From positions 1 through 12,601 of IMG/VR virus record IMGVR_UViG_2606217105_000016: 12,601 nt of DNA; one strand, 5' to 3'. Every line of letters begins with the position of its first letter. Within the stretch, counting starts at the first letter, position 1. The translations under genes were made by a program, and so were the position numbers. Positions 1 through 12,601 of this stretch are shown in pieces. The stretch comes from a virus (lineage: Duplodnaviria; Heunggongvirae; Uroviricota; Caudoviricetes). Below the pieces are notes generated by a model. That model had not been told where the DNA came from, did not search any database, and saw nothing but the letters and a program-made list of their open reading frames with translations.

Positions 1-1119
1 TCAAATAACCAACTTAACCCATTCCTGACCTCGAGTATCGTTATAGCGATCGGTGGTTGCCTGGACTTTATGTCCTAGTAATGTTTTTGTATCGATACCC
101 TGTGCACGGTACAGCCGTTCTGATAGAGAGCGTTGTTCATGAAATGTTGGCGGAGTTTTTCCTGCTGGTGGAATTATCCCAGCCAGATCCCGTGCTTTGG
201 CAAAGTAGTCGCTCAGGTTGTCTTTACTCATCGGCTTCGGTTGTTTCTGGTGCCGACTATGGATTAGATATGGACTTAATATTCTGTCTCGGCACCCATC
301 AATAACTTCTTTTAACGTTATCCCAATGGCATCACAGCGTAGTGTAAGCGGTAACGCCAGACGCATTCCGGTTTTTCCCTGGGTGATATGCAAGTGTTCG
401 TTCCACACATCTGAAAAACGCATGTGGCAAATGTCATCACGGCGCTGACCAGTAACAATCGCAAGAAGCATTGCGTTACGGATAAAGTGTTTTTCAGGCG
501 TTGCATTGTAAATTTTTTGCCAGTCTTCCATGGTGAGCCTAGCTCTGGTTACTTTAGGGATCGGTTTACGGGTAGCCTCCGGAGGATTCCATCCAGGAGG
601 AACTTCCCCTGCATGCTGTGCTTCTTTATAAATATCAACCCATAATCCACGATTTACTCTCGCTGTGCTGACCATGTCTTTATCCAGCCACTCATCCAGT
701 ATTAATGCAAAGTCTCTTACTTCCAGTTCTTTCAATGGGTGGTTTCCCAGACGGGAAACCAGGTATGCAGCCATTCGAGTTTTTTCTTTGTGAGTTGTAG
801 CTGCAATATCTCCATTTTTCAGTCGCGTGTCCTGTATTTTCAGATATCGATCAACCCATGCCTTTAATCTGATACCCCGACGTTTTGTTGCTGACGGACT
901 TTCATCAATTTTGCGCATGAAATATTCAGCTTCTGCTGCAGCTATTCGCTGATTGGCTGTGGAAGCGATTTTTTCTGCCTTACCTTTGTCTGTTCCGAGT
1001 CCGTGAAATTTTCCAGTCACAGGATTTTTATACTGGTAGTAAACTCTGCCAGTTCTGCGATCAAACTTTTCGTAAAGACCGGCTACGTCAGTGCTGTTTT
1101 TTCGTGGCCTCGGTGACAT
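1..1119 (-). CDS. int: Phage tyrosine integrase (lambda Int family)
   Basis: 372-aa ORF with ATG at 1119..1117 and stop at 3..1. The C-terminus (HEQRSLSERLY...LLGHK...TTDRYNDTRGQEWVKL) closely matches the lambda Int catalytic tail as recalled (HELRSLSARLY...LLGHK...YRDDRGREWDKI), including the His/Arg and Tyr nucleophile region. The start overlaps the upstream excisionase gene as in lambda int/xis. Confidence 0.93.
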   Translation of the reverse strand: MSPRPRKNSTDVAGLYEKFDRRTGRVYYQYKNPVTGKFHGLGTDKGKAEKIASTANQRIAAAEAEYFMRKIDESPSATKRRGIRLKAWVDRYLKIQDTRLKNGDIAATTHKEKTRMAAYLVSRLGNHPLKELEVRDFALILDEWLDKDMVSTARVNRGLWVDIYKEAQHAGEVPPGWNPPEATRKPIPKVTRARLTMEDWQKIYNATPEKHFIRNAMLLAIVTGQRRDDICHMRFSDVWNEHLHITQGKTGMRLALPLTLRCDAIGITLKEVIDGCRDRILSPYLIHSRHQKQPKPMSKDNLSDYFAKARDLAGIIPPAGKTPPTFHEQRSLSERLYRAQGIDTKTLLGHKVQATTDRYNDTRGQEWVKLVI

Positions 1120-1357
1120 GAGTTAAAATCTCCTTCAGTGCATCATCATCGCCAGTATGAATTTCCGGCGCAATTCCCGTTTCACCAGGCCCAACAAATA
1201 CTGCTCGGCGATCTATCAGCCAACGCCCACGAATTTTTTGTGGTCTTGGAACGATGTATCCTAGTTTTCCGTATTTCACCAGGGTAGTGTTTGTTATTGG
1301 GAGACTGAACCGTTTTGGTTTCCACTCGTCGAGCGTTATCAGGTACTGTTCGCTCAT
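1088..1357 (-). CDS. xis: Excisionase-like protein
   Basis: Small (~89 aa) basic ORF immediately upstream of int, overlapping it by 32 bp. ATG at 1357..1355 is preceded by GGAG about 8 nt upstream; the ORF track extends to a GTG at 1366. Position and size fit a lambdoid Xis; sequence identity was not verified. Confidence 0.65.
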   Translation of the reverse strand: MSEQYLITLDEWKPKRFSLPITNTTLVKYGKLGYIVPRPQKIRGRWLIDRRAVFVGPGETGIAPEIHTGDDDALKEILTHVTEATKKQH

Positions 1358-1418
1358 GGCTATCACTCCGGAACGCGCCAGTTGCAGAATATCAACGACA
1401 ACTGGCGACGGTTGAACA

Positions 1419-3890
1419 TTAAAAATCAGCCTGACTCGGGATCAGTTTTTGCCAGATAACTGAAACGTATTTTGCCTGGTAACGGGCGTCATCAAGTGCA
1501 TTATGGCGCTCACCTTCGAATGGAATAGCCGTTCTGGCATCGAAGTCTATGGCTTTCCCCAGCTCAACGATTGTGCGTACATCGCGATCGTTGTAGTAAC
1601 GCCACGGGCAGGGGATCCCCTGCCGTTCGTATGAACGGCGCAAAATCGTGTTGTCGAAGTTGGCTCCATTTCCCCAGACCTGAACAAAAAATTCACCGGA
1701 GTTTTCGTCGATAAATTCCCGCAATTGTAACAGTGCATCATCTAACGGGATTTCATCGGTCATAATGGCAGATTGCGCCTCGCGTGATTGCTTAAGCCAC
1801 CATTTAATGGTGTCACGATCAATGACTCCGCCAGCAGTTTCCAGATCGATAGTCTTACTAAATTCCGGTCCCATATCTCCGGTTTGCGGATCGAAAAATA
1901 TTGCACCTATTGAGATAATCGGGGCATCAGGATTTTTTCCCATGGTTTCAAGGTCGATCATTAGATGGTCACACGTCCTGCTGGTGGATGTGATAACGCG
2001 ATGACCGTTCACCGTAATTAAGGGATCTGCCGTCTCGCCAGTTTCACTATCGCTGGCGTGATCCTGAGCGCTGCCAGCATTCTCCTTGTGTGGGTGTTCA
2101 GCGCCTTCCATTTTCTCCGAATCGTCTTCCTGAACTTCAACCTGGTTCTTGTCATCGAATGTTTCCTGGTATGTTGCGTCGCCCATCACCGCACCACAAT
2201 CAGGGCAGTTGCCACCACCGCTCTGACCGCAGGCGGTGCAGATTTTTTCCGGTTCCTGTTGCACTACTGGTTCAGGTTGTTTCGTTTCTGGCTCGTTTTG
2301 TTGCGTATTTGGGCTGTTTTGTTCCGCTTTCTGGTCGTTCTGTTCCGTTTCTTGCTGGTTCTGGTTCACAGTATCGCGGGTCTGGATCCCCTTAACCCAT
2401 TTCGGATCATTCGGGTCGCTAATCCCTTCAATAAATTCACCACGTGATGCAGCAAGCAACTTATCGGCGTCAGGCTGGCTGATATTGGCTGCCTGCATAA
2501 TTTTGTTTACTTCGTCAGCGGTAACTTTTACCGGTTCTGGCTGTGCGGTCGTGTCAGATGCACCAGTATTTTGTTGTGAACCTGAGTATGTACTGTTTTT
2601 GCGGGCGAAATATTCTTCTTTCGTGATTTCAGTAGCCCCGGCAGCCAGCGCCTTATCCAGACCAGAAAGTTTGTTTGCGCGACCGTATTTTTCGCCATCC
2701 TTGTCGGTGAAGAGGAAGTAGAACGGCCCCTCACGCTCTACAGATGGTTCGACTTCCACTTTGCATTCGGTTTTTTCGTTGTCCGGAATTGCCGTTTCCA
2801 CTGCATCAGTTTCTGGTACTGGCGACGAGAGAGTATCAGTTGCGCTCTGATTTGTTCCTTCATCTTCAAACACGCCCTTTGTAGTCAGGTATTCAGTAAT
2901 GTATTTGTTCAGTGCCACAGGATCTTTGTGAATGTCGATCGGACGTCCACGGACAAGGCCAAAAATAGTCTGGCGGTCGTAGCGAAGGGCATCAGGCTGT
3001 TTGCGCATCGATGCCGAGATACGCTTCCAGTCTTCGCGGTCGTTGTCGATAACTTCATTTTTTGCCCAGCGATGGATGCTGCCGTCAATGTTTCCGGCAT
3101 CCACATCACCAGGCCAGAGAGCGTAGGCCAGTTCGTCATCCAGTGTTTTCCATGTCTGCTTGTATTCGCGACGAATGACTGCAGTGACAGGGGAGATATT
3201 TTCTGCTGAGTTTTCAGTGTGCTGTCGGTTGACTCTGGCGCGGGCGAGATCAACAGCAGACGTGTATTTTCCGGTTTCCTTGCGTTCACCTTCGCGACGT
3301 TTTTTCCAGATGCGCATCTCTGCCTGAATTTCGGGCCATTTAGCTCCAGGCTTACATTTATGCTTAACCCACCCGATGGCATGCAACTTAAGTTCTGGAT
3401 ACATGGCGTTAACTTCTGGCATTTTCATCAACGCTTCAACGATATGTCCGTCGAATGTTGCCATGTCTTCCTGCAACAATTCCTGCGCGCTAATCACCAT
3501 ATCAACGGTGATGTTTTCACATGTGTCGAACTTAACCATGACAGCGTTCTGTACTTCAGGGGCCAGCTTGTCAAAAGTGACGTTCATCGGATCTGATTCA
3601 GTCTCAACCGGGACAAAGGAAGCAGACTCCTCATCCCAGCGGTTTTCCTGCATATATTCAGCATCCCAGGAATCGAGGGCAGGGCGGGGTATACCGGGTT
3701 TATCCTCGCAAACAAGAAATTTATAAGCGCAGTCCTGAGCAGCCGGATAATGCTCCAGGAATTGCCAGTGAAATTTTGCGCGGGCGCGACGTTCATCACC
3801 GGCTTCAATGGCAGTGGCTACAGCGACTGCACCTTCTTCCTTTATTGCCTGTTCGTCCGGAATGGCGGCGCAAATAAAGACTTTACTCAT
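1419..3890 (-). CDS. Exodeoxyribonuclease VIII-like protein with C-terminal DnaQ-like DEDDh 3'-5' exonuclease domain, CxxC-x7-CxxC zinc ribbon and Q/E/N-rich linker
   Basis: 823-aa ORF, ATG at 3890..3888 with GAGG upstream. C-terminal roughly 190 aa carry the exonuclease motifs Exo I (MIDLETMG), Exo II ([13 protein letters not shown]) and Exo III ([10 protein letters not shown]). Zinc ribbon [15 protein letters not shown] is encoded near 2190..2237. A low-complexity Q/E/N/P linker is encoded near 2236..2400. Confidence 0.85.
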
Positions 3891-3982
3891 TTTGTTTTAC
3901 CTCATTACAGATTTAAGGGTGAACAAATCCCTGCCATTGCTGGCATATAAGAATGAAAGCGGATGTTTATTACGGAACTGTT

Positions 3983-4174
3983 TTAAAGACCTGCCGGGAT
4001 TTCGTTATTATCCTGGTGAATAACTTTATCGACCGGGTAACAGTTACCGGGAATTTTCTGTTCGGTTGCTGCAGTCATACATTCCTGCATTGTCCTGTGA
4101 ACACTGACTGCAATATCAACTGGCTCTCCGGAAACAAGATAAACTGTCAGAACAAGCGCAAATGCTGAATTCAT
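3983..4174 (-). CDS. Small hypothetical protein with N-terminal signal-peptide-like hydrophobic segment (~63 aa)
   Basis: ATG at 4174..4172 preceded by AAGGA 8 nt upstream. Begins MNSAFALVLTVYLVSGEPV, which looks like a signal peptide or membrane anchor. Its start overlaps the stop of the upstream ORF in an ATGA arrangement. The ORF track's longer 81-aa version starts further upstream at 4228. Confidence 0.5.
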   Translation of the reverse strand: MNSAFALVLTVYLVSGEPVDIAVSVHRTMQECMTAATEQKIPGNCYPVDKVIHQDNNEIPAGL

Positions 4175-4359
4175 TGTGCACATCCTTTTGGCATCAGACG
4201 TAAACGAGCCAGCATTGAAACAATGCATATTTTATTTAATAGCTCCCGTTCTTGTTTTCTCTTGTTAATGGCATCTTCAGTAAATACTGGGTTACTGATA
4301 GTGACACCAATTTCAAAACAACCTTCAGACGTATTAACGTTTGGTAATAACGTTTCCAT
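4171..4359 (-). CDS. Small hypothetical protein (~62 aa)
   Basis: ATG at 4359..4357 preceded by GAGGA 7 nt upstream. Its TGA stop (4173..4171) overlaps the ATG of the downstream gene, suggesting translational coupling. The ORF track's 97-aa version starts at a GTG at 4464, which is less convincing. Confidence 0.45.
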   Translation of the reverse strand: METLLPNVNTSEGCFEIGVTISNPVFTEDAINKRKQERELLNKICIVSMLARLRLMPKGCAQ

Positions 4360-4917
4360 TATCGCGTCCTCAACAATGAATTTTGTGATGCGGTGCCTGG
4401 TGCCTCCAGGTGACGTTAACCAGTTAACAATTAACGCCGGATACAGAGAACCCACCCATAACACTGTTTTTGGTTTTAACTGTTCCGCGTGCGCTTAGCC
4501 GCATTCACCGCATCACAAAATTCACTTTAAAAAGGGCGGCAGAGCAGTCACGGAGTAAAACTGATACCGCCAAACGCCACCAGAAAATTGATAACAGAGG
4601 GCGTTGCAGCGGGGTTGTCACTTAAGCGTATGGTCAACCTGACAACCCGGTGTCCTCAACGGGGAAGGAATAACCCCGCCATACTTACCGCCGCGCCATT
4701 TCGCGGATTGCCACAACCGGAAGCGCACGGTCGAATTAAATTTAACGACACCGTACAGACAGAATAACTTCGCCGTGCGCTTTCGCGTTATGTCCTGACT
4801 TTTCAGGGATATATCCTTCCAGTAAACTGCCAGTGCCGGATGCTCACCCGTGTCCGGCGCACGCACTCCACCTGACCCGTGGAGAACTCCTTAATTACCA
4901 ACCCTCAGGAGGGTGAA

Positions 4918-5139
4918 ATGACTAGTAAAAATGTAAATATCCAGTTTAACCACGATGTTTCTCCTGCTGGACTTGCGGATGAGCTCACTGCTATAAAAAC
5001 GGCAATTATGCTACTTGCTGCTAAGTTGCCTGCGTCATCAAAGCCAGCGGAAATTTGTGACTCATTGCGTAAGATGAATTCAACAAAATGCAATGAGATG
5101 GCATCACTTATTGAAAGTGCAATTGATTTTAATGATTAA
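4918..5139 (+). CDS. Hypothetical small protein (73 aa)
   Basis: ATG at 4918 preceded by a canonical AGGAGG (4907..4912) with 5-nt spacing. It is the only plus-strand gene in a block of minus-strand genes and overlaps the 3' end of the convergent gene 5129..5503 by 11 bp. Confidence 0.5.
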   Translation: MTSKNVNIQFNHDVSPAGLADELTAIKTAIMLLAAKLPASSKPAEICDSLRKMNSTKCNEMASLIESAIDFND

Positions 5140-5503
5140 TCGAAATTTCATGGCTAACTGTAACACTCCCATCTGTGGCGGGATGGTTTAAATCGCTGGG
5201 ATTAATGCCGCACTCAGTAAAATGGTTCTTAAGGGGTTCTATCCGAATCCCTTTCTTTTTCATTAACAAGCCAAACCCCTTATCAATGATATCCATTAAT
5301 TCCAGGAGGTATTTTTCATGTAAATCCTGGTTATCAGAGAGCTGCTTCTCTTCGTACAGACCGATAAAGGCACGACGCACGTTACCGGATATAGTATCGA
5401 TGGTTTCTTTTTCTACGGTACTCAGGTCAAGAGTCGCCAGTTGGGAACGAACTATATTCGCTGCCATTTCCTGGAATTGCATTGGTAAATCTTTAAATTC
5501 CAT
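5129..5503 (-). CDS. Hypothetical protein (124 aa)
   Basis: ATG at 5503..5501 with GAGG upstream. It is the second gene of the leftward operon downstream of the repressor-flanking operators. No recognisable motifs. Confidence 0.6.
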   Translation of the reverse strand: MEFKDLPMQFQEMAANIVRSQLATLDLSTVEKETIDTISGNVRRAFIGLYEEKQLSDNQDLHEKYLLELMDIIDKGFGLLMKKKGIRIEPLKNHFTECGINPSDLNHPATDGSVTVSHEISINH

Positions 5504-5525
5504 TATTAGCCTCGTTGGTTAGCTA

Positions 5526-5744
5526 TTAACGCGGGCATGTAATCATTCTGGCAATGCTTAATGCCGCTGCTTTTTCCAGCCTGGTGATATCCTGCTCCAG
5601 AGCGGACAGATTTTCAGCCTGCTTAGCCTTGGCTTCATTGGCCCATTTCAGATCCTGCGCTGCATTAATTTTCTGGCGCATCCACTCATAAAGTTCATCA
5701 TCGGTATAGTCTGGCGCGATGATGACGGGTTCTCGTTTCTGCAT
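5526..5744 (-). CDS. Hypothetical protein (72 aa), first gene of the leftward early operon
   Basis: ATG at 5744..5742 preceded by GAGGA 6 nt upstream. Acidic, predicted helical. It lacks an arginine-rich N-terminus, so it is not an obvious lambda N-type antiterminator. Confidence 0.6.
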   Translation of the reverse strand: MQKREPVIIAPDYTDDELYEWMRQKINAAQDLKWANEAKAKQAENLSALEQDITRLEKAAALSIARMITCPR

Positions 5745-5939
5745 ACTGATTCCTCGCGGTGCTGTTTCCCCTTAACGCCGGGGTAGCGGAACAAAAACCT
5801 GCTGCATAGTTATTAAAGTTGAACCCTGCCGTCATGTTCTTACGCCTCGGGCTGGCTACTTAACCCCTGACCACTGCCTGGTAACTCAAAGTATTGCCCT
5901 GCATTCTGTGGGGCGGGGTGGGTTGGTATGAAAAGAAGG

Positions 5940-5978
5940 ATACCCATAGGTATTTAAAAAGTAAATACCCATGGGTAA
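5940..5978. promoter_or_regulatory. OL-like operator pair with a leftward pL-like promoter
   Basis: Two 14-bp palindromic sites 25 bp apart: ATACCCATAGGTAT (5940..5953) and ATACCCATGGGTAA (5965..5978, containing the perfect 12-bp palindrome TACCCATGGGTA). On the minus strand these interleave with a -35-like TTTACT and a -10-like TATCCT, mirroring the OR/pR arrangement. Confidence 0.6.
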
Positions 5979-6019
5979 CCTTTTGCAGTGTCTTAACTGG
6001 TGACTAGTTGTTTGGTGAG

Positions 6020-6439
6020 CTATGATGCGTTTTGTGCTTTCTTTTTACGGATTTCTTCGTAGATCATATTGTAATACTGTTTTTTCTCTTCAAGAGTTTT
6101 TAATAATTTATCCGCTTCACTTTCTGGCAGTTCGTCTAAGAGATCTAAAAAAATACGTTGTCGTGGCGTTAGAACCCTTGTTTCATAACTGGAGGCTGTG
6201 TTCGTTGATGATGAAACGATACCATCCATCCATCCCCGGGGTAACCCAAAGGACTCTTCGATAATCTCCACCATATCATCAGCGATCCGTTTTTTTCCCT
6301 TTTTCCCCTCTGGGTACAACATTCTTGATACATAAGAAGGCTCGCGCCCGATCTTTCTGGCCACGTTAACCGCTTTACCATCGCATTTCTCATCACGAAT
6401 TTTGATGAGTTGCTGTCGTCTAAATTCATATTTGTCCAT
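6020..6439 (-). CDS. CI-like phage repressor (HTH DNA-binding protein)
   Basis: 139-aa ORF with an HTH-like segment (AVNVARKIGREPSYVSRMLYPEGKKGKKRI). It is divergently arranged with a Cro-like gene across an operator-bearing intergenic region. There is no Shine-Dalgarno before the ATG, which sits about 7 nt downstream of a TATTAT -10 on the minus strand, suggesting a leaderless mRNA as for lambda cI from pRM. The repressor is small, with no obvious S24 peptidase domain. Confidence 0.75.
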   Translation of the reverse strand: MDKYEFRRQQLIKIRDEKCDGKAVNVARKIGREPSYVSRMLYPEGKKGKKRIADDMVEIIEESFGLPRGWMDGIVSSSTNTASSYETRVLTPRQRIFLDLLDELPESEADKLLKTLEEKKQYYNMIYEEIRKKKAQNAS

Positions 6440-6445
6440 AGGTAA

Positions 6446-6514
6446 ATAATAGATGCGATTACTGCAAGGTAAACAACCTGTGGGTATTGACTTTTGTTTA
6501 CCTGTGGGTATTCT
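6446..6514. promoter_or_regulatory. OR-like operator pair with divergent pRM-like and pR-like promoters
   Basis: Two 14-bp sites 24 bp apart: CAACCTGTGGGTAT (6474..6487) and TTACCTGTGGGTAT (6498..6511), sharing the half-site GGTAT with the OL sites. pR-like -35 TTGACT (6487..6492) and -10 TATTCT (6509..6514) overlap the operators. pRM-like -10 (minus-strand TATTAT, plus coordinates 6446..6451) sits just upstream of the repressor ATG. Confidence 0.6.
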
Positions 6515-6539
6515 TTGCTGTGTTTACTAAGGAGTAGCT

Positions 6540-6821
6540 ATGGAAGAATTAAGAATATTTCTCAATTCTCTTTCGTCAGATGAACAGCGTATGTTTGCAT
6601 GCGAGTGTGGTACCAGCATCGGTTATCTAAGAAAGGCATTGAGTAAAGGTCAAGTGTTAGGGGCATCGTTATGTGTCCTTATTGAGCGAGCCAGTAATGG
6701 TGAAGTTACACGTCAGCAACTAAGGCCTTTGGATTGGATGAATATTTGGCCCGAGCTGGAAGATACCAAAACGTTAACACAACCACTTTCTAGGAGCTTG
6801 ATTCATGAAAATCAAGCATGA
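6540..6821 (+). CDS. Cro-like (YdaS-type) small HTH regulator
   Basis: 93-aa ORF, ATG at 6540 preceded by AAGGAG with 5-nt spacing. The segment CGTSIGYLRKALSKGQ resembles a Cro/YdaS-type HTH. Divergent from the repressor. Confidence 0.75.
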   Translation: MEELRIFLNSLSSDEQRMFACECGTSIGYLRKALSKGQVLGASLCVLIERASNGEVTRQQLRPLDWMNIWPELEDTKTLTQPLSRSLIHENQA

Positions 6822-7230
6822 ACACATCCGCATGGCGATGAATGCCTGGGCGCGTCCTGATGGCGAAAAAGTTCCAGCAGCTGGAATAACCCAGGCTTAT
6901 TTTGAGTTGGGTATGACGTTTCCTGAACTGTATGACGACAGCCATCCGGAAGCCTTGGCTCGCAATACCCAGAAAATTTTCCGCTGGGTAGAGAAAGACA
7001 CCCCTGATGCAGTTGAAAAAATTCAGGCGTTGTTACCAGCGATCGAAAAGGCAATGCCACCTTTGCTGGTGGCCAGAATGCGCAGCCACAGTTCAGCTTA
7101 TTTTCGGGAGCTGGTGGAGACGCGGGAGCGACTGGTGAGAGACGCTGATGATTTTGTCGCAGTGGCAATCGCCGGTTTCAATCAGATGAACCGTGGTGGC
7201 CCGGCAGGAAATGCTGTGGCAGTACATTGA
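6805..7230 (+). CDS. CII-like / YdaT-like prophage protein
   Basis: 141-aa ORF overlapping the Cro-like gene by 17 bp; ATG at 6805 with AGGAG upstream. Size, position immediately after the cro-like gene and the N-terminus MKIKHEHI match my recollection of Rac prophage YdaT. This is from memory, not verified. Confidence 0.65.
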   Translation: MKIKHEHIRMAMNAWARPDGEKVPAAGITQAYFELGMTFPELYDDSHPEALARNTQKIFRWVEKDTPDAVEKIQALLPAIEKAMPPLLVARMRSHSSAYFRELVETRERLVRDADDFVAVAIAGFNQMNRGGPAGNAVAVH

Positions 7231-7301
7231 CTGACAATAGCCATATCGAATCGCTTCCGGCAACTCGTGAGTAAAAAGATTCGGTATCAGAAGAGGTGAG
7301 T

Positions 7302-8372
7302 ATGGCTAACGCCTGGCTCAGATTATGGCATGACATGCCAAATGACCCTAAGTGGCGAACAATTGCCAGGGTGTCAGGGCAGTCAATTGCAACAGTGATG
7401 GCAGTGTATATCCACCTCCTGGTGAGCGCGTCACGAAATGTCACGCGAGGTCACATTGATGTCACGACAGAAGATTTGGCAAGTGCGCTCGACGTGACAG
7501 AAGAGGTAATTGATTCAATTTTGCAGACGATGCAGGGGCGGGTACTTGATGGTGATTTAATCACTGGATGGGAAAAACGCCAGGTGCTGAAAGAGGACAA
7601 CGGCAATATTTCGCAAACCGCAAAATCTCCGGCAGAGCGCAAGAGGGCGCAGCGAGAGAGGGAAAGAAAGCGGGAACAAAATGGAGATTGTCACGGCGCG
7701 TCACGAAATGTCACGCACATGTCACGACGAGTCACGACAGATAAAGATACAGATAAAGATACAGATCAAGAAGATCAAAACACTATGGTCCATGGCGTAA
7801 AAAACGCCACGAACCAGGCAGGGGATGTTCAGACCGTCAATCCTGGTCAGCCAGCAGGCACGACACCGGAAGCCGATTCAGCGTATGCGCTGAAAGCCGA
7901 TTCGGGCGCTGTGCAGCAGGTGATGACCGCAAGGCCGGAGCAATCACACCAACTGCAGCAGCCTGAAGCCGATTCCGCCATTCAGCGGGAAGCCGATCGG
8001 GTAGTCCCGGAAAACACCGGGCAGCCTGTGAGACGAGTGGATTATCCGGATGTGTTCGAACAGGTCTGGCGGGAATACCCGTTGCGTGCTGGGGCAAACC
8101 CGAAGAAATCCGCTTTCAGTGCCTGGAAGGCCAGATTACGCGAGGGGGTGCCACCAGAGGCCATGCTGGATGGCGTGAGGCGTTACGCAAGATACTTGGC
8201 GGCTACCGGGAAAACGGGAACGGAATTTGTTCAGCGAGCGACGACGTTTTTTGGACCGGACCGGAATTTTGAGAACCCCTGGTTGCTCCCGGTAAGCGGC
8301 ACGAACAACCAGCGTTGTGTGAATCATATTTCTGAACCGGATAACGAAATTCCGCCGGGCTTCAGGGGGTAA
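7302..8372 (+). CDS. Replication initiator-like protein (YdaU/DUF1376-like) with internal iterons
   Basis: Probable ATG at 7302 with AAGAGG 5 nt upstream; the ORF track begins at a GTG at 7296. It sits where lambdoid phages carry the O-type initiator, and contains two iteron clusters in-frame, analogous to ori-lambda inside gene O. It also contains a DKDTDKDTD tandem repeat. Confidence 0.7.
   Translation: MANAWLRLWHDMPNDPKWRTIARVSGQSIATVMAVYIHLLVSASRNVTRGHIDVTTEDLASALDVTEEVIDSILQTMQGRVLDGDLITGWEKRQVLKEDNGNISQTAKSPAERKRAQRERERKREQNGDCHGASRNVTHMSRRVTTDKDTDKDTDQEDQNTMVHGVKNATNQAGDVQTVNPGQPAGTTPEADSAYALKADSGAVQQVMTARPEQSHQLQQPEADSAIQREADRVVPENTGQPVRRVDYPDVFEQVWREYPLRAGANPKKSAFSAWKARLREGVPPEAMLDGVRRYARYLAATGKTGTEFVQRATTFFGPDRNFENPWLLPVSGTNNQRCVNHISEPDNEIPPGFRG
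7426..7470. repeat. Iteron cluster 1 (candidate replication origin element)
   Basis: 45-bp block gcgcgtcacgaaatgtcacgcgaggtcacattgatgtcacgacag with TCACG-type motifs at about 10-bp phasing (7431, 7441, 7451, 7462). Its first 21 bp are identical to the start of cluster 2. Confidence 0.65.
7696..7740. repeat. Iteron cluster 2 (candidate replication origin element)
   Basis: 45-bp block gcgcgtcacgaaatgtcacgcacatgtcacgacgagtcacgacag, exactly 270 bp downstream of cluster 1. TCACG motifs at 7691, 7701, 7711, 7722 and 7732 are phased at roughly one helical turn. Confidence 0.65.
7740..7775. repeat. Short tandem repeat (12-bp unit gataaagataca, two copies plus degenerate copies)
   Basis: gataaagataca at 7740..7751 and 7752..7763, followed by gatcaagaagat. 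Encodes DKDTDKDTDQED inside the replication gene. Confidence 0.7.
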
Positions 8373-8412
8373 GTGTTGATTTCTGGTCATGAGGTAATTT
8401 TCAGGAGGACTT

Positions 8413-8823
8413 GTGGCAAAAGTTTTTACACAAGAAGAGCGAGAAAAAATTAAAGGGCGGGTTGTTGAACTCGTACGCCAGAGTGGGCGTGAGACGTTAC
8501 GGCAACTGGAAGTCAAGACAGGTGCGACAAGATATCTGATGAGCGTTCTCGCAAGAGAGCTGGTTGCCAGCGGCGATGTATACAACTCTGGTTACGGGTT
8601 ATTCCCGTCTGAACAGGCGCGTAAGGACTGGCAAAATGCCCGTAAAAAGCTCTCAAGGGCAAAGCCGAAGAAACCATCTGCGGTTGATCCGGACCTTATC
8701 TGGTCATTACCTGACGGAGAAATACGTCGCTACGACAGGCGTCAGAACATAATCTGTCGCGAGTGCCGGAAGAGCGAAGTTATGCAGCGCGTGCTGGCGT
8801 TCTATCGGCGACGTTTTAGGTAG
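8413..8823 (+). CDS. Hypothetical basic protein (136 aa), possible winged-helix DNA-binding protein
   Basis: GTG start at 8413 preceded by AGGAGG (8403..8408) with 4-nt spacing. Arg/Lys-rich C-terminus with a CxxC-like RECRK segment. Function unknown. Confidence 0.55.
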   Translation: MAKVFTQEEREKIKGRVVELVRQSGRETLRQLEVKTGATRYLMSVLARELVASGDVYNSGYGLFPSEQARKDWQNARKKLSRAKPKKPSAVDPDLIWSLPDGEIRRYDRRQNIICRECRKSEVMQRVLAFYRRRFR

Positions 8824-9399
8824 CGTTACATTGAGCAAACGGTGCAGAATTGAAATAATAGCAATTCGGAAGTATGCCGCTACGATGATGGTTGAAAGCA
8901 TAGGTAAGTTGACTGGGAAGGTTGTTACTGCAGTGAGCTCAGTCCGTGTATATAACCCATCATTGCCTGAAGGTGAGCAACAATCAGGTGCAACCGAAGT
9001 TAACGGCAAGAAGCTATGGCTGATAATGGTTCTGCAAATGCCAAACCGTTAGTGATTTCCGGAGAAACAATGTGGAAGGATATGGCAAAGGTAAAAAGTG
9101 TCTGTGAAAGATGCAAAATATCTAAACCATACATACAACCTCCTATCATGTAATAGTGTCGATGCCATTTCAATACACGGTAGCTCAGGAGAGGGACGAA
9201 AACAGCGGATACCCATTTATCAGTACTGGTTTCTCAATCCTCAGGTTTACCCAAAACTCAACACTAATCCAGCTGGTTATGTGAACCAGGTAAATTCTTT
9301 TGGTGTGAACCTCTTGAAGATGAAAGTTTTTTTGCTATGTTAGTCAAACATAAACTTCCCCTTTTTGAGCAAAAAATACTCTTTTAGAAGGATATTTAA

Positions 9400-11511
9400 A
9401 TGGCGCGTCAATATGAAATGCAGATATCAAGGATGACAGTAGATAAATTAGGTGTGAAATTATATGACAGGGCTTATGCTGTTATAGCCGAATTAGTATC
9501 TAACAGTTACGATGCAGATGCGACTAATGTCACTATAAAAGCACCTATGGGCCAATACTTGGCTGTTAGACAGGATGGTGTTGTCAGGTCAAAAAATGTC
9601 ACAATAGAAGTAGAAGATAATGGCGTCGGAATGGCGCCTGATGAACTACAGAACTTTTATTTGGTTGTTGGCAAAGAAAGACGTAAGGATCCAAAAAGAG
9701 GTGAAACCTCGAAGGTGTTTCACCGCAAAGTCATGGGACGGAAAGGCGTTGGGAAATTAGCACCTTTTGGTGTTTGTAAAAGGGTCGAGATTATAAGTGC
9801 CGGTGGGGAAAAAATCAGTCGTGATGGAAAGGAAGGGTATGAGGTTGCTCATATTCAGCTAGATAAAGAAAAAATAATGGATGATACTGCAGTGTCTTAT
9901 AAACCGGAAACTGGGGATTTAGACGGCACACTAAGTGACAGGACCTATACTAAAATAATATTAAGTGATTTTGAATATAGAAAAATTAGCGAAATAAAAG
10001 ATTTATCTCGGCAGCTTTCACAACGTTTTGGAGTGAAGAGTAAAAACTGGAATATTAAACTGATTGATACTTCGAAAACAAAGTCTAATCCTGACTATGA
10101 AGTTGAGGTCGGAGAGTTTACTGTTCCTGTTATGCCTAACTCTAAAATTGAATTTCGTTCCATGAGTGGAAGTATTGCGACAGATTCTTGTACGGATTTA
10201 AGTGATTATACGGCTTTTAATCCTGACGGCACGCGTTCATCAATTGTTAAGGCCGGTTTTGAACATGAAGGGAAAGCTTACCCGATATTAGGTTGGATTG
10301 CATACGCGAAAGAGCCTTATAAGGACGAGTTAATGGCAGGTGTTAGAATTTATTGCCGAGGTAAGTTTGCTGCGCAAACAGCAGTTTTTAATAGAAAAGC
10401 TGGTTTTACTGGAGAGCACTCTATACGTTCATATTTGGTAGGTGAGTTGCATGCTGACTGGTTAGACGAAAAAGAAGATCTTATCCAAACTGATAGAAGG
10501 GATATTCTATGGTCTGATGATTTAGGAACGCAATTTCAGAATTGGGGGCAAGAAGTTATTTTACTTGTGGGTAAAATAACTCGCGACCCCCTTAGAAATA
10601 ATATGATGAATCAATTCTTCGAATTAGCGCAAGTGGAGGATAAGGTCGAGCAAGCATACCCTGGAGCCGGTCAAAAGGATATGCGAGCACAGGCTAAAAA
10701 AATAGCCAAGTTGTTGGGTAAATCTTTACGAGGTGATGAATTACATGATCCTGATGCACTCGAGAATTTAGTGCAGTTAAGTATTATGTTAGCACCATTA
10801 CAATCCTTAGATGAGAAGTTAATAGAAGCTTCCAGTAAAGCGGATACACCGCTCAATGTTCTCAACGATATTTTAGCAACGGCTCAACTAGCTGAAACCG
10901 TTAGTTTTGGTCAAAAGGTCAAAAAGCGTCTTCAGATTATTGAGCGTCTCGAGTCTTTAAAAGACGCAAAGGATACAGCAGAAGATGAGTTACAAGATCT
11001 AATTGCATCCGCTCCGTGGCTAGTTAACCCTCAATGGGTCCCAGTTACAGCAAATAAAACGTTGTCCACGCTTAAAAGGGAATTTCAAAAATTTTATAAA
11101 AAGAAAACTGGTGAGGAGATATTTCTTATAGATTTTGATAAAAAAAATAAAAGACCAGACTTTGTATTGTTTAGTCAGGATGGAAAATTACAAATAATTG
11201 AAATAAAAAAGCCACATCATTATATTTCCAATGATGAAATGGATCGTATTATTAATTACTTCGAAACATTCGAGGAGTTTTTGAACGATGAGAGACATAA
11301 TGATTTTAAATCAATAGCATCTGATTTTCACGTTACGCTGGTAAGTGATGGGGAGCGCTTGAGTGGGGCACGTCGTAAAGCTTATACTGCATACATCGAA
11401 GAAAAACGCCTAACACCCGTTGATTGGGCAGGGTTCTTGCTGAGGACAACTCAAACTCACCAAGAATTCTTGGATGAGGCAGAACAGTTGAAGTTGGGAA
11501 ATAATGAGTGA
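9400..11511 (+). CDS. GHKL-family ATPase (MORC-like) fused to a C-terminal PD-(D/E)xK nuclease domain; predicted ATP-dependent restriction endonuclease
   Basis: 703-aa ORF, ATG at 9400 preceded by AAGGA. N-terminal Bergerat-fold motifs: ELVSNSYDADA (E-x3-N-x2-D-A), DNGVGM (DxGxG) and GRKGVGK. C-terminal nuclease motif RPDFVLFSQDGKLQIIEIKK (PD...EIK). The stop overlaps the start of the methyltransferase gene by 8 bp. Confidence 0.8.
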   Translation: MARQYEMQISRMTVDKLGVKLYDRAYAVIAELVSNSYDADATNVTIKAPMGQYLAVRQDGVVRSKNVTIEVEDNGVGMAPDELQNFYLVVGKERRKDPKRGETSKVFHRKVMGRKGVGKLAPFGVCKRVEIISAGGEKISRDGKEGYEVAHIQLDKEKIMDDTAVSYKPETGDLDGTLSDRTYTKIILSDFEYRKISEIKDLSRQLSQRFGVKSKNWNIKLIDTSKTKSNPDYEVEVGEFTVPVMPNSKIEFRSMSGSIATDSCTDLSDYTAFNPDGTRSSIVKAGFEHEGKAYPILGWIAYAKEPYKDELMAGVRIYCRGKFAAQTAVFNRKAGFTGEHSIRSYLVGELHADWLDEKEDLIQTDRRDILWSDDLGTQFQNWGQEVILLVGKITRDPLRNNMMNQFFELAQVEDKVEQAYPGAGQKDMRAQAKKIAKLLGKSLRGDELHDPDALENLVQLSIMLAPLQSLDEKLIEASSKADTPLNVLNDILATAQLAETVSFGQKVKKRLQIIERLESLKDAKDTAEDELQDLIASAPWLVNPQWVPVTANKTLSTLKREFQKFYKKKTGEEIFLIDFDKKNKRPDFVLFSQDGKLQIIEIKKPHHYISNDEMDRIINYFETFEEFLNDERHNDFKSIASDFHVTLVSDGERLSGARRKAYTAYIEEKRLTPVDWAGFLLRTTQTHQEFLDEAEQLKLGNNE

Positions 11512-12601
11512 GAAAACAGTGACCAGTTTGAATGCAGTTGACCTATTTAGCGGTGGTGGGGGACTAACCATGGGACTAAAAATGGCCGGGTTTGATGTCA
11601 AAGCTGCCGTTGAACTGGACGCACATGCCGCCGCTACTTTCCAAGCAAATCATCGTGAGACAAAACTCTTTGTTCAAGATATTCGGTTTGTAAAGGGGAG
11701 TGATATCCTAAATCTTATCCCTGAGCAACATTTAGATCTTTTATCTGCGTGCCCGCCATGTCAAGGATTTACTAGTCTCACTGCCAAGTATAAAAGGGAG
11801 GACCCTCGTAATTTATTGATTAACGAGATGTTACGGTTGGTTGAAGAAACCAATCCATCAGCAATCATGATGGAAAATGTTCCTGGATTAGCTTCCCGGG
11901 GAAATCATCTTCTTTCGCCAGTAATTGAGAGATTGAAAAAACTTGGTTACATAGTTAATTATGGAGTTTTGCAAGTAGCTGACTTTGGTGTACCACAGTT
12001 CAGAAAAAGGCTTGTTCTGTTGGCAGGAAAAGGATTTGCCATCCCATTGCCTGATGGATCACACTCTAAGGATGGAAGAGAGAAACCCAAATGGGTAACT
12101 GTTAAAGAAGCTATTGGAGATATGCCAAAACCCTTAACTCTTTCACAGGCTAAGAAGCAAGGGAAGTTTCCATTGTCGAGTTGGCATATTGTTAGGGATT
12201 TGTCTGAGATCAATATAAAGCGGTTACAAGCGGCTGTTCCAGGGATGTCTTGGGAGTGTATTCCCGAAGAACTCCGTCCAGATTGCCATAAAGGCGACTA
12301 TAAAGGATTTAGTAATGTTTATGGTCGTATGCTTTGGGATGACGTATCGCCTACGATTACAGGTGGGTGCACAACTTTAAGCCGTGGGCGATATGGACAT
12401 CCTGAGGATACGCGTACTATTTCTGTTCGAGAAGCTGCTAGACTACAGACTTTTCCTGATAACTATGTGTTTGATACAGCTTTGATGGATAAAGTATGCG
12501 TCATAATAGGAAATGCACTTCCATGCAAGTTTGCAGAGTATTTGGCTAACCACTGTAAAAATTATATTAATAAAGCAAGAACAGCTGGATTAATACCATA
12601 A
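11504..12601 (+). CDS. DNA (cytosine-5)-methyltransferase
   Basis: 365-aa ORF with the canonical m5C methyltransferase motifs: I (LFSGGGGLTMGL), IV (PPCQGFT, catalytic Cys), VI (ENVPGL), VIII (QFRKRLVLL), IX (REAARLQTFPDNYVF) and X (GNALPCKFAEYLANH). A variable target-recognition region lies between VIII and IX. ATG at 11504 overlaps the upstream gene. Confidence 0.93.
   Translation: MSEKTVTSLNAVDLFSGGGGLTMGLKMAGFDVKAAVELDAHAAATFQANHRETKLFVQDIRFVKGSDILNLIPEQHLDLLSACPPCQGFTSLTAKYKREDPRNLLINEMLRLVEETNPSAIMMENVPGLASRGNHLLSPVIERLKKLGYIVNYGVLQVADFGVPQFRKRLVLLAGKGFAIPLPDGSHSKDGREKPKWVTVKEAIGDMPKPLTLSQAKKQGKFPLSSWHIVRDLSEINIKRLQAAVPGMSWECIPEELRPDCHKGDYKGFSNVYGRMLWDDVSPTITGGCTTLSRGRYGHPEDTRTISVREAARLQTFPDNYVFDTALMDKVCVIIGNALPCKFAEYLANHCKNYINKARTAGLIP

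Follow-up and report, generated by a model that had tools for sequence, protein, structure and literature searches.

We analysed positions 1 to 12,601 of the IMG/VR virus record IMGVR_UViG_2606217105_000016 (Caudoviricetes), a stretch of 12,601 nucleotides hereafter called the window, with a focus on the gene for an 823-amino-acid (aa) exonuclease at positions 1419-3890. The protein is a mosaic: an N-terminal domain of its own is joined to a middle region and a zinc ribbon that it has in common with RecE of the Rac prophage, and to a DEDDh nuclease that occupies the slot of the PD-(D/E)XK 5'-3' nuclease of RecE. Across the related loci compared, the annealase RecT accompanies the PD-(D/E)XK type and is missing next to the DEDDh type.

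The gene and the domain layout of its product

The complete gene, of the intact YdfE type, forms a single open reading frame (ORF) on the minus strand, in agreement with a reading of the window made beforehand from the sequence alone (the sequence-only reading). Its stop codon lies at 1419-1421 and a GAGG Shine-Dalgarno ribosome-binding site stands at 3900-3903 on the minus strand, 9 nt 5' of the ATG start, while the plus-strand frame across the same positions has many stops. The product is 100% identical to the RefSeq coding sequence (CDS) WP_332114164.1, identical RefSeq CDSs being named 'exonuclease' or '3'-5' exonuclease', and the profile of PHROG 2082 ('exonuclease') spans residues 1-823 of 823. 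Near-identical database proteins carry precomputed PF27430 (YdfE_N) and PF27432 (YdfE_C) matches. With this end-to-end profile, K-12 orthology and the same operon position, the protein is a full member of the YdfE family (PHROG 2082; Pfam YdfE_N and YdfE_C).

Along the protein, N-terminal domains are followed by a Q/E/N/P linker, a zinc ribbon, an acidic linker and the DEDDh exonuclease, all encoded on the minus strand. The sequence-only reading had named the zinc ribbon, the Q/E/N/P linker and the C-terminal DEDDh domain, all of which are present, but it had placed the ribbon ahead of the linker, and the order is the reverse. AlphaFold2 (AF2), run on a diverse alignment of 15 sequences, returned confident domains at aa 1-205, 245-340 and 388-432 (pLDDT ~85-96) with disordered linkers between them; from the single sequence of the whole protein, it gave pLDDT 35 and no usable model. 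The first folded domain (aa 1-205; 3276-3890) is of the Pfam YdfE_N type, the alternative to the N-terminal PF06630 of RecE. It is followed by a helical middle domain (aa 245-340; 2871-3158; AF2 pLDDT 85-95), which aligns by BLASTP with RecE 278-336, and by a small beta-hairpin plus helix domain (aa 388-432; 2595-2729; AF2 pLDDT 91-96), whose motif GPFY...GRANK...EI(T/S)xEEY is kept across 15 diverse relatives. No match was obtained when the N-terminal alignment profile was compared with PDB sequences (best E 0.77) or when BFVD was searched with Foldseek at E 1e-3 or better.

A conserved peptide at aa 471-500 (2391-2480), almost identical in RecE (BLASTP to RecE 455-483), precedes the Q/E/N/P-rich low-complexity linker at about aa 501-548 (2247-2390), which reaches 75% Q/E/N/P in its best 40-aa window; the wider bounds given earlier for this linker, 2236-2400, correspond to aa 497-552. 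The proposal that it is built from degenerate short repeats was borne out by Tandem Repeats Finder, which detected a degenerate 21-bp (heptad) unit in 4 copies, with 74% matches, at 2277-2360. Among orthologues the linker measures 37, 44, 51 or 58 aa, in exact steps of 7 aa (one heptad), and its length variation is a copy-number change of the 21-bp repeat. The zinc ribbon CxxC-x7-CxxC (C551/C554/C562/C565; aa 551-565; 2196-2240), located by a regular expression on the translation, has a weak match to Pfam DZR (E 0.12), and RecE reads CNACGQTGGDNCPDCG at the aligned place. The acidic linker (aa 571-640; 1971-2180), recognised by its composition, has an isoelectric point of 4.3.

The ratio of nonsynonymous to synonymous substitution rates (dN/dS) lies between 0.05 and 0.15 in the exonuclease and the other folded domains (0.15 in the helical middle domain, 0.05 in the small domain and 0.11 in the exonuclease) versus 0.64-0.74 in the linkers (0.72 in the acidic linker). 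Given these low values in the folded domains relative to the linkers, the whole protein is under purifying selection, and thus maintained rather than decaying.

The DEDDh exonuclease domain

The C-terminal domain (aa 642-813; 1452-1967) is predicted to be a DEDDh 3'-5' exonuclease of the Rv2179c-like/T4 DexA type. It matches Pfam PF16473 with an E of 2.4e-67 and 226.5 bits, against a cut-off of 27, over profile positions 2-177 of 177, and the Pfam scan gave no PD-(D/E)XK or DUF3799 match in the protein; hidden Markov model (HMM) annotation thus sides with the earlier suggestion of a DEDDh domain in place of a RecB-like 5'-3' nuclease. The putative catalytic residues D646, E648, D746, H796 and D801 align, in invariant columns, with D7, E9, D119, H186 and D191 of T4 DexA. 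The sole solved relative by sequence (E 1.4e-6) is PDB 8kel; its chain of 227 aa was deposited under the name 'Exodeoxyribonuclease', and we take it to be T4 DexA. In the T4 GenBank record, DexA is a 3' to 5' DNA exonuclease and the dexA note mentions host DNA degradation.

A stand-alone E. coli homologue of DexA, EcD ('HREX'), is reported to digest only DNA containing 5-hydroxymethylcytosine (5hmC) and to shield cells against T4 (Kang et al. 2025, PMC12153337); K-12 strains are said to be devoid of DexA homologues (PMC12153337). An EcD-like 189-aa protein from IMG/VR shares 38% identity with aa 644-816 of the window protein, and the stand-in for EcD in our alignment was the closest EcD-like protein recovered (38% identical to the window domain). 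The residues proposed to recognise 5hmC (PMC12153337) are changed here, DexA W152 being replaced by Y765 and D169 by a lysine, and DexA D90, a tetramer residue lost in EcD, is kept as D718. Because D718 is kept and W152 and D169 are replaced, the window domain is not an EcD-type (HREX) enzyme by the criteria of that study. The idea that the EcD of Kang et al. is this very domain was also rejected, as the EcD cloning primers show a protein that starts with MIDTET and ends with TIPETY.

From these alignments, the identity of the enzyme as a DEDDh exonuclease is secure and 3'-5' activity on DNA is predicted. DNA is the probable substrate by analogy with DexA and EcD and with the RecE scaffold to which the domain is fused.

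A RecE scaffold with a different nuclease

BLASTP against Rac RecE aligned aa 262-626 with RecE 278-592 (E 6e-62, 39% identity overall), zinc ribbon of RecE included, and the comparison with RecE that had been drawn from the letters of the window thus reflects true homology. Near-identity sets in at about aa 470 and takes in an AASRGEF(I/V)(E/D)-type peptide, the zinc ribbon and the acidic linker. Homology ends at aa 626 (RecE 592), where the nuclease region of RecE starts, and BLASTP of the window protein to RecE 593-866 returned no significant match. At the other end, the Pfam scan found no match in the window protein to PF06630 (Exonuc_VIII), the N-terminal domain of RecE, the N-terminus being of the YdfE_N type. 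The NCBIfam equivalog for RecE, NF007259, scored 283.1 bits against a cut-off of 1269, over model positions 243-603 of 877 only. The window protein thus shares the non-catalytic middle of RecE and carries a different nuclease in the catalytic position. It falls outside RecE/exodeoxyribonuclease VIII, with which its central region, zinc ribbon and acidic linker nevertheless fit; the old 'exodeoxyribonuclease VIII' label rests on true homology, but outside the catalytic part.

To survey this scaffold, aa 1-640 were searched exhaustively against 1.84 billion cluster representatives (50% identity), yielding 246 clusters at E 1e-3 or better, and long representatives were dissected with phmmer. Two other homologue searches returned almost only E. 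coli sequences more than 88% identical, and diversity was thus drawn from the 50%-cluster representatives. The scaffold family is narrow, its named sources being Escherichia species and Enterobacter kobei. Its members have in common the middle and zinc-ribbon part, preceded by either of two N-terminal modules (YdfE type or RecE PF06630) and followed by one of three C-terminal states: DEDDh, RecE-type PD-(D/E)XK, or none recognisable (no Pfam match). All four combinations of N-terminal module (YdfE or RecE) and nuclease (DEDDh or PD-(D/E)XK) occur among the 50%-identity representatives, which suggests free recombination between N-terminal modules and nuclease types.

One Rac-like prophage (L005, 6001-8418, with sieB, kilR and ydaE upstream) carries the RecE N-terminal PF06630 fused to DEDDh, followed by xis and int, recT being absent; within this Rac-type operon, the block of RecE nuclease plus recT has apparently been replaced. 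Among scaffold members of the third kind, P0125 (702 aa; L201, 5001-7109) and P0137 (789 aa; L203, 5001-7370) have C-terminal regions of about 250-300 aa with no Pfam match. Such nuclease-less members often show a G(R/K)FS(I/V)(D/E)G motif and occupy the same operon slot, and a Sipho_Gp157 gene comes after that of P0137. Proteins of this type may correspond to the nuclease-less 'RecE-2' proteins mentioned in PMC12315714.

Nuclease type and the RecT annealase

The sequence-only reading had reported no RecT-, Bet- or Erf-like gene between the exonuclease gene and the block of small genes upstream. HMM scans of these small ORFs identified YdfD/DUF1482, DicB, YdfC, unnamed PHROGs and the small RNA (sRNA) DicF, and no annealase, and a RecT profile had no match in the six-frame translation of the window. 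The upstream block had also been proposed as the place to look for an annealase; none was found there, but the proper place is downstream, between the exonuclease and the excisionase gene xis; both sides are empty. In Rac, recE and recT overlap at the end of recE.

We then compared independent contexts. The six DEDDh contexts comprise the window (strain IrN has an identical gene), the complete phage Tritos and four representatives of 50%-identity clusters. None of the six has RecT next, and in all six xis and int follow directly, versus a gene of the Pfam RecT family directly after the nuclease in 5/5 independent PD-(D/E)XK contexts (Fisher p = 0.002 for nuclease type versus RecT over the 11 contexts). 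The reading of the ORF after P0131 as a non-RecT gene was rejected: it has no BLASTP match to Rac RecT, yet belongs to the Pfam RecT family (E 2e-36).

The picture was the same at 160 further loci from IMG/VR, close relatives that speak for consistency. A RecT-family ORF lies within 5 kb on either side in 0/80 DEDDh loci, most of whose contigs end ~1.4-1.6 kb past the stop codon (the length of xis plus int), and a RecT ORF overlaps the end of the nuclease gene in 80/80 loci with the RecE nuclease. In the pooled set, RecT is immediately downstream in 85/85 PD-(D/E)XK loci and in 0/86 of the DEDDh loci examined. A Pfam scan of the ORFs flanking the representatives returned integrases, repressors, YdaT and DicB, with no annealase among the 25 commonest families, to which are added 24 further families of at most one ORF each. 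In Tritos, ten genes, mostly function-less in the record, were scanned with no match to an annealase PHROG.

Across these loci, the absence of an annealase is a systematic property of the DEDDh variants and not an effect of the window edge. As RecT is present with PD-(D/E)XK and absent with DEDDh, the exchanged unit appears to be either the PD-(D/E)XK domain plus recT or the DEDDh domain alone.

The prophage context

The window represents the left arm of a prophage of the lambdoid type. Downstream of the exonuclease gene, 52 bp separate its stop codon from the start of xis (1088-1366, minus strand; PHROG 629 and RefSeq annotation), beyond which lies the integrase gene int (1-1119, minus strand; profile scan and RefSeq annotation); in strain IrN, the prophage end at int adjoins potC. 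Upstream, also on the minus strand, are ydfD (3983-4174; Pfam DUF1482 and RefSeq name), dicB (4171-4359; Pfam DicB and RefSeq name), the DicF sRNA (4534-4585; Rfam, 76.4 bits), ydfC (5526-5744; HMM scan and RefSeq) and a repressor gene (6020-6439). The exonuclease gene is the last cargo gene of this leftward early (pL-type, dicB/DicF) operon, of which ydfD, dicB and DicF are upstream members, and the order ydfC - DicF - dicB - ydfD - ydfE is common to the window and the Qin prophage of K-12. An 86-aa ORF at 4879-5139 on the plus strand (PHROG 7249, RefSeq-annotated) is antisense to the operon, between DicF and a 124-aa gene.

The plus strand of the window carries YdaS/YdaT-like regulators and a replisome organiser. 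The positions of cro and cII (6540-7230, plus strand) are held by YdaS-like and YdaT-like proteins, whose Pfam families are named as toxins and which are probably phage early regulators here. Further right, a low-GC cassette at 9400-12601 on the plus strand (GC 0.37-0.44 versus ~0.50 nearby) codes for a protein of 703 aa and, overlapping with it, for a C5 cytosine methyltransferase that extends past the window end. The N-terminus of the 703-aa protein is type II restriction-enzyme-like and its C-terminus weakly SduA/DUF4263-like; together the two resemble a restriction-modification system that travels as cargo behind the replication genes. The prophage of strain IrN, with the identical exonuclease gene, has other genes in place of this cassette.

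Chi sites and host recombination

Chi (GCTGGTGG) occurs four times in the window, always on the plus strand (164, 1980-1987, 7065 and 7110), versus 0.31 expected, a count that 0/200 shuffles reached. With the genome drawn in the lambda convention, Chi is active in this plus-strand orientation. In Tritos, 11 Chi sites stand against 1.6 expected, and in Table 1 of Zheng et al. (2025, PMC12315714) this phage is the prototype of a four-phage lambdoid class with a nuclease and many Chi sites but no annealase, single-stranded DNA-binding protein or anti-RecBCD protein. According to that paper, lambdoid phages can carry DnaQ-like 3'-5' nucleases, and Chi-rich phages are proposed to depend on RecBCD. 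The Chi enrichment of the window fits this Chi-rich class devoid of annealase and Gam.

Distribution and prior knowledge

The gene family is already known, being catalogued in PHROGs, Pfam and RefSeq and present in most E. coli genomes: DNA matches are present in 4800 of 5426 complete E. coli genomes (median two copies per positive genome), and in 3533 of them a match spans at least 80% of the gene. The nuclease-only module, like the DnaQ-like nucleases found in lambdoid phages, was also published in 2025 (PMC12315714). What is added here is the precise mosaic boundary with RecE, the free recombination of N-terminal modules and nuclease types suggested by the representatives, and the strict coupling of RecT with the type of nuclease. 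Incremental as they are, these additions make the function of the RecE N-terminal region more testable.

Proposed role and alternatives

The biological role, unlike the enzyme identity, we infer. Our tentative preference, held at slightly less than even confidence, is a stand-alone 3'-5' DNA end-trimming enzyme that is accessory to host RecBCD and RecA. The early-left operon would supply the exonuclease, along with DicB and DicF, once the prophage is induced or a cell is infected. Its non-catalytic scaffold, which in sister proteins carries the end-processing nuclease of RecE, would bring it to its substrate, probably the ends of linear duplex DNA, and the DEDDh domain would remove 3'-end nucleotides by two-metal catalysis. 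The enzyme would act with no phage annealase, RecT travelling only with the PD-(D/E)XK domain in this family. The phages that carry the gene are rich in Chi and have no Gam-like inhibitor of RecBCD. Together, the missing annealase, the missing Gam and the many Chi sites point to the trimming of 3' tails, and not to one half of an exonuclease-annealase recombinase: the enzyme may trim or blunt 3' tails in a role like that of host ExoI, recombination and concatemer formation being left to the host RecBCD-Chi-RecA pathway.

Several points weigh against this role. As noted in PMC12315714, a 3'-5' exonuclease usually depresses recombination because it destroys the invading 3' tail, so that a role in favour of recombination is not what one would first expect. 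Some scaffold proteins have no recognisable nuclease, and the job of the scaffold may thus be unrelated to DNA ends; its fold, compared with PDB by profile and with BFVD by Foldseek, yields no functional clue. Rv2179c, the founder of the Pfam family, is described as an exoribonuclease, and the literature searched holds no functional study of ydfE or of Rv2179c in phages. Finally, the 160 IMG/VR loci are not independent of one another.

The exoribonuclease description raises the reading that the enzyme trims RNA 3' ends, for instance in the processing or turnover of operon RNAs such as DicF, which lies on the same transcript; several RefSeq names, like the Pfam family description, say 3'-5' exoribonuclease. 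But the relatives considered here, DexA and stand-alone EcD, both act on DNA, the fusion partner is the RecE scaffold, and K-12 makes DicF though its ydfE has no nuclease domain, and we regard an RNA substrate as the least probable of the readings weighed. Kinship with EcD raises a different one, a defence or exclusion nuclease that would degrade incoming modified phage DNA and be kept as protection of the lysogen. Plasmid-borne EcD is reported to digest 5hmC-containing T4 DNA and to protect E. coli, and K-12 strains are said to have no DexA homologues (PMC12153337), which fits the truncated ydfE of K-12. The 38% identity of the EcD-like 189-aa protein to aa 644-816, the intactness of the gene in most prophage copies (at least 80% covered in 3533/5426 genomes) and purifying selection, as expected of a gene useful to the host, go the same way. 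We nonetheless hold this reading to be unlikely: the 5hmC-recognition residues W152 and D169 are not conserved, the aspartate lost by EcD is retained, and the 640-aa RecE-type scaffold has no EcD counterpart. Moreover, the gene comes last in a repressed early-left operon, with dicB and DicF ahead of it, and does not hold the position of a moron expressed in the lysogen; its PADLOC match is a weak, generic DEDDh one (E 1.7e-5).

Kinship with DexA, whose GenBank note mentions host DNA degradation, and the scavenging of host DNA described in PMC12153337 would accommodate nucleotide scavenging or host shut-off, in which 3'-end degradation of host or broken DNA feeds replication or contributes to a takeover with DicB, DicF and YdfD. 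Co-transcription with the host-directed dicB, DicF and ydfD speaks for it, but it leaves unexplained both the 640-aa scaffold shared with RecE and the reciprocal exchange with the RecE-nuclease-plus-RecT cassette. Temperate lambdoid phages are not known to degrade the host chromosome, and we consider this reading distinctly improbable. In a further reading, the protein would be an annealase-independent recombinase that replaces RecE and RecT together, its scaffold joining two ends while 3'-5' resection bares complementary 5' tails that anneal spontaneously. Annealing of 5' tails has a precedent in ExoIII/XthA-dependent in vivo cloning. The exact RecE slot and the RecE non-catalytic region are those expected of such an enzyme, nuclease type and RecT presence switch together, and full-length RecE, unlike its nuclease domain alone, boosts linear-linear recombination (review PMC11611040), a sign of an end-related role of the scaffold. 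Yet the proposal is pure inference, no DNA-binding or synapsis fold is recognised in the scaffold, spontaneous annealing is inefficient in vivo, and Chi enrichment points to reliance on RecBCD; we judge it highly unlikely, if marginally less so than action on RNA.

A broader proposition can be formulated, in which the RecE N-terminal region is a nuclease-agnostic DNA-end module and the DEDDh variant an annealase-free single-protein recombinase or else an unrecognised anti-phage nuclease. We give it little credence, on a par with scavenging; if true, a gene present in most E. coli genomes would gain a function under either reading. Beyond these readings, the gene is among the most widespread prophage genes in E. 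coli, and the natural domain swaps offer a handle on the old question of the large non-catalytic part of RecE, a scaffold that is accompanied by a 5'-3' nuclease and RecT in some cases, by a lone 3'-5' nuclease in others, and in yet others by no recognisable nuclease. The gene also bears on the recombination and replication of Chi-rich lambdoid phages that have neither annealase nor Gam.

Comparison with known systems

T4 DexA and EcD belong to the same exonuclease domain family as the window domain, which keeps all five catalytic residues, but they are single-domain proteins of ~190-230 aa, whereas the window domain is the C-terminal 22% of 823 aa. RecE of Rac, with its partner RecT, holds the same slot, in the distal part of the early-left operon just ahead of xis and int, and has the homologous non-catalytic region with the same CxxC-x7-CxxC zinc ribbon and acidic linker, together with a shorter version of the same Q/E/N/P linker. 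The two differ in nuclease (PD-(D/E)XK, 5'-3', in RecE; DEDDh, 3'-5' type, in the window protein) and in the first ~260 residues (PF06630 in RecE; YdfE_N in the window protein). In addition, recT follows recE in Rac, while xis takes the place of recT in the window, and with no adjacent annealase gene found, the window gene is not part of a two-component exonuclease-annealase system of the RecET or Red type.

YdfE of the K-12 Qin prophage (pseudogene b1577) is 94% identical to the first 256 aa of the window protein; the K-12 copy is cut by IS2 after ~256 matching residues and has no nuclease, whereas the window gene is complete. The window gene is thus the full-length, intact form of ydfE. Phage Tritos has the orthologue in the same gene order; of window positions 1-7300, 61% is matched, at 94% DNA identity. 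The available text of PMC12315714 contains no analysis of the RecE-scaffold/DEDDh mosaic or of its link with RecT, and the window shows no difference in kind from the Tritos-type nuclease-only module and is another member of that class.

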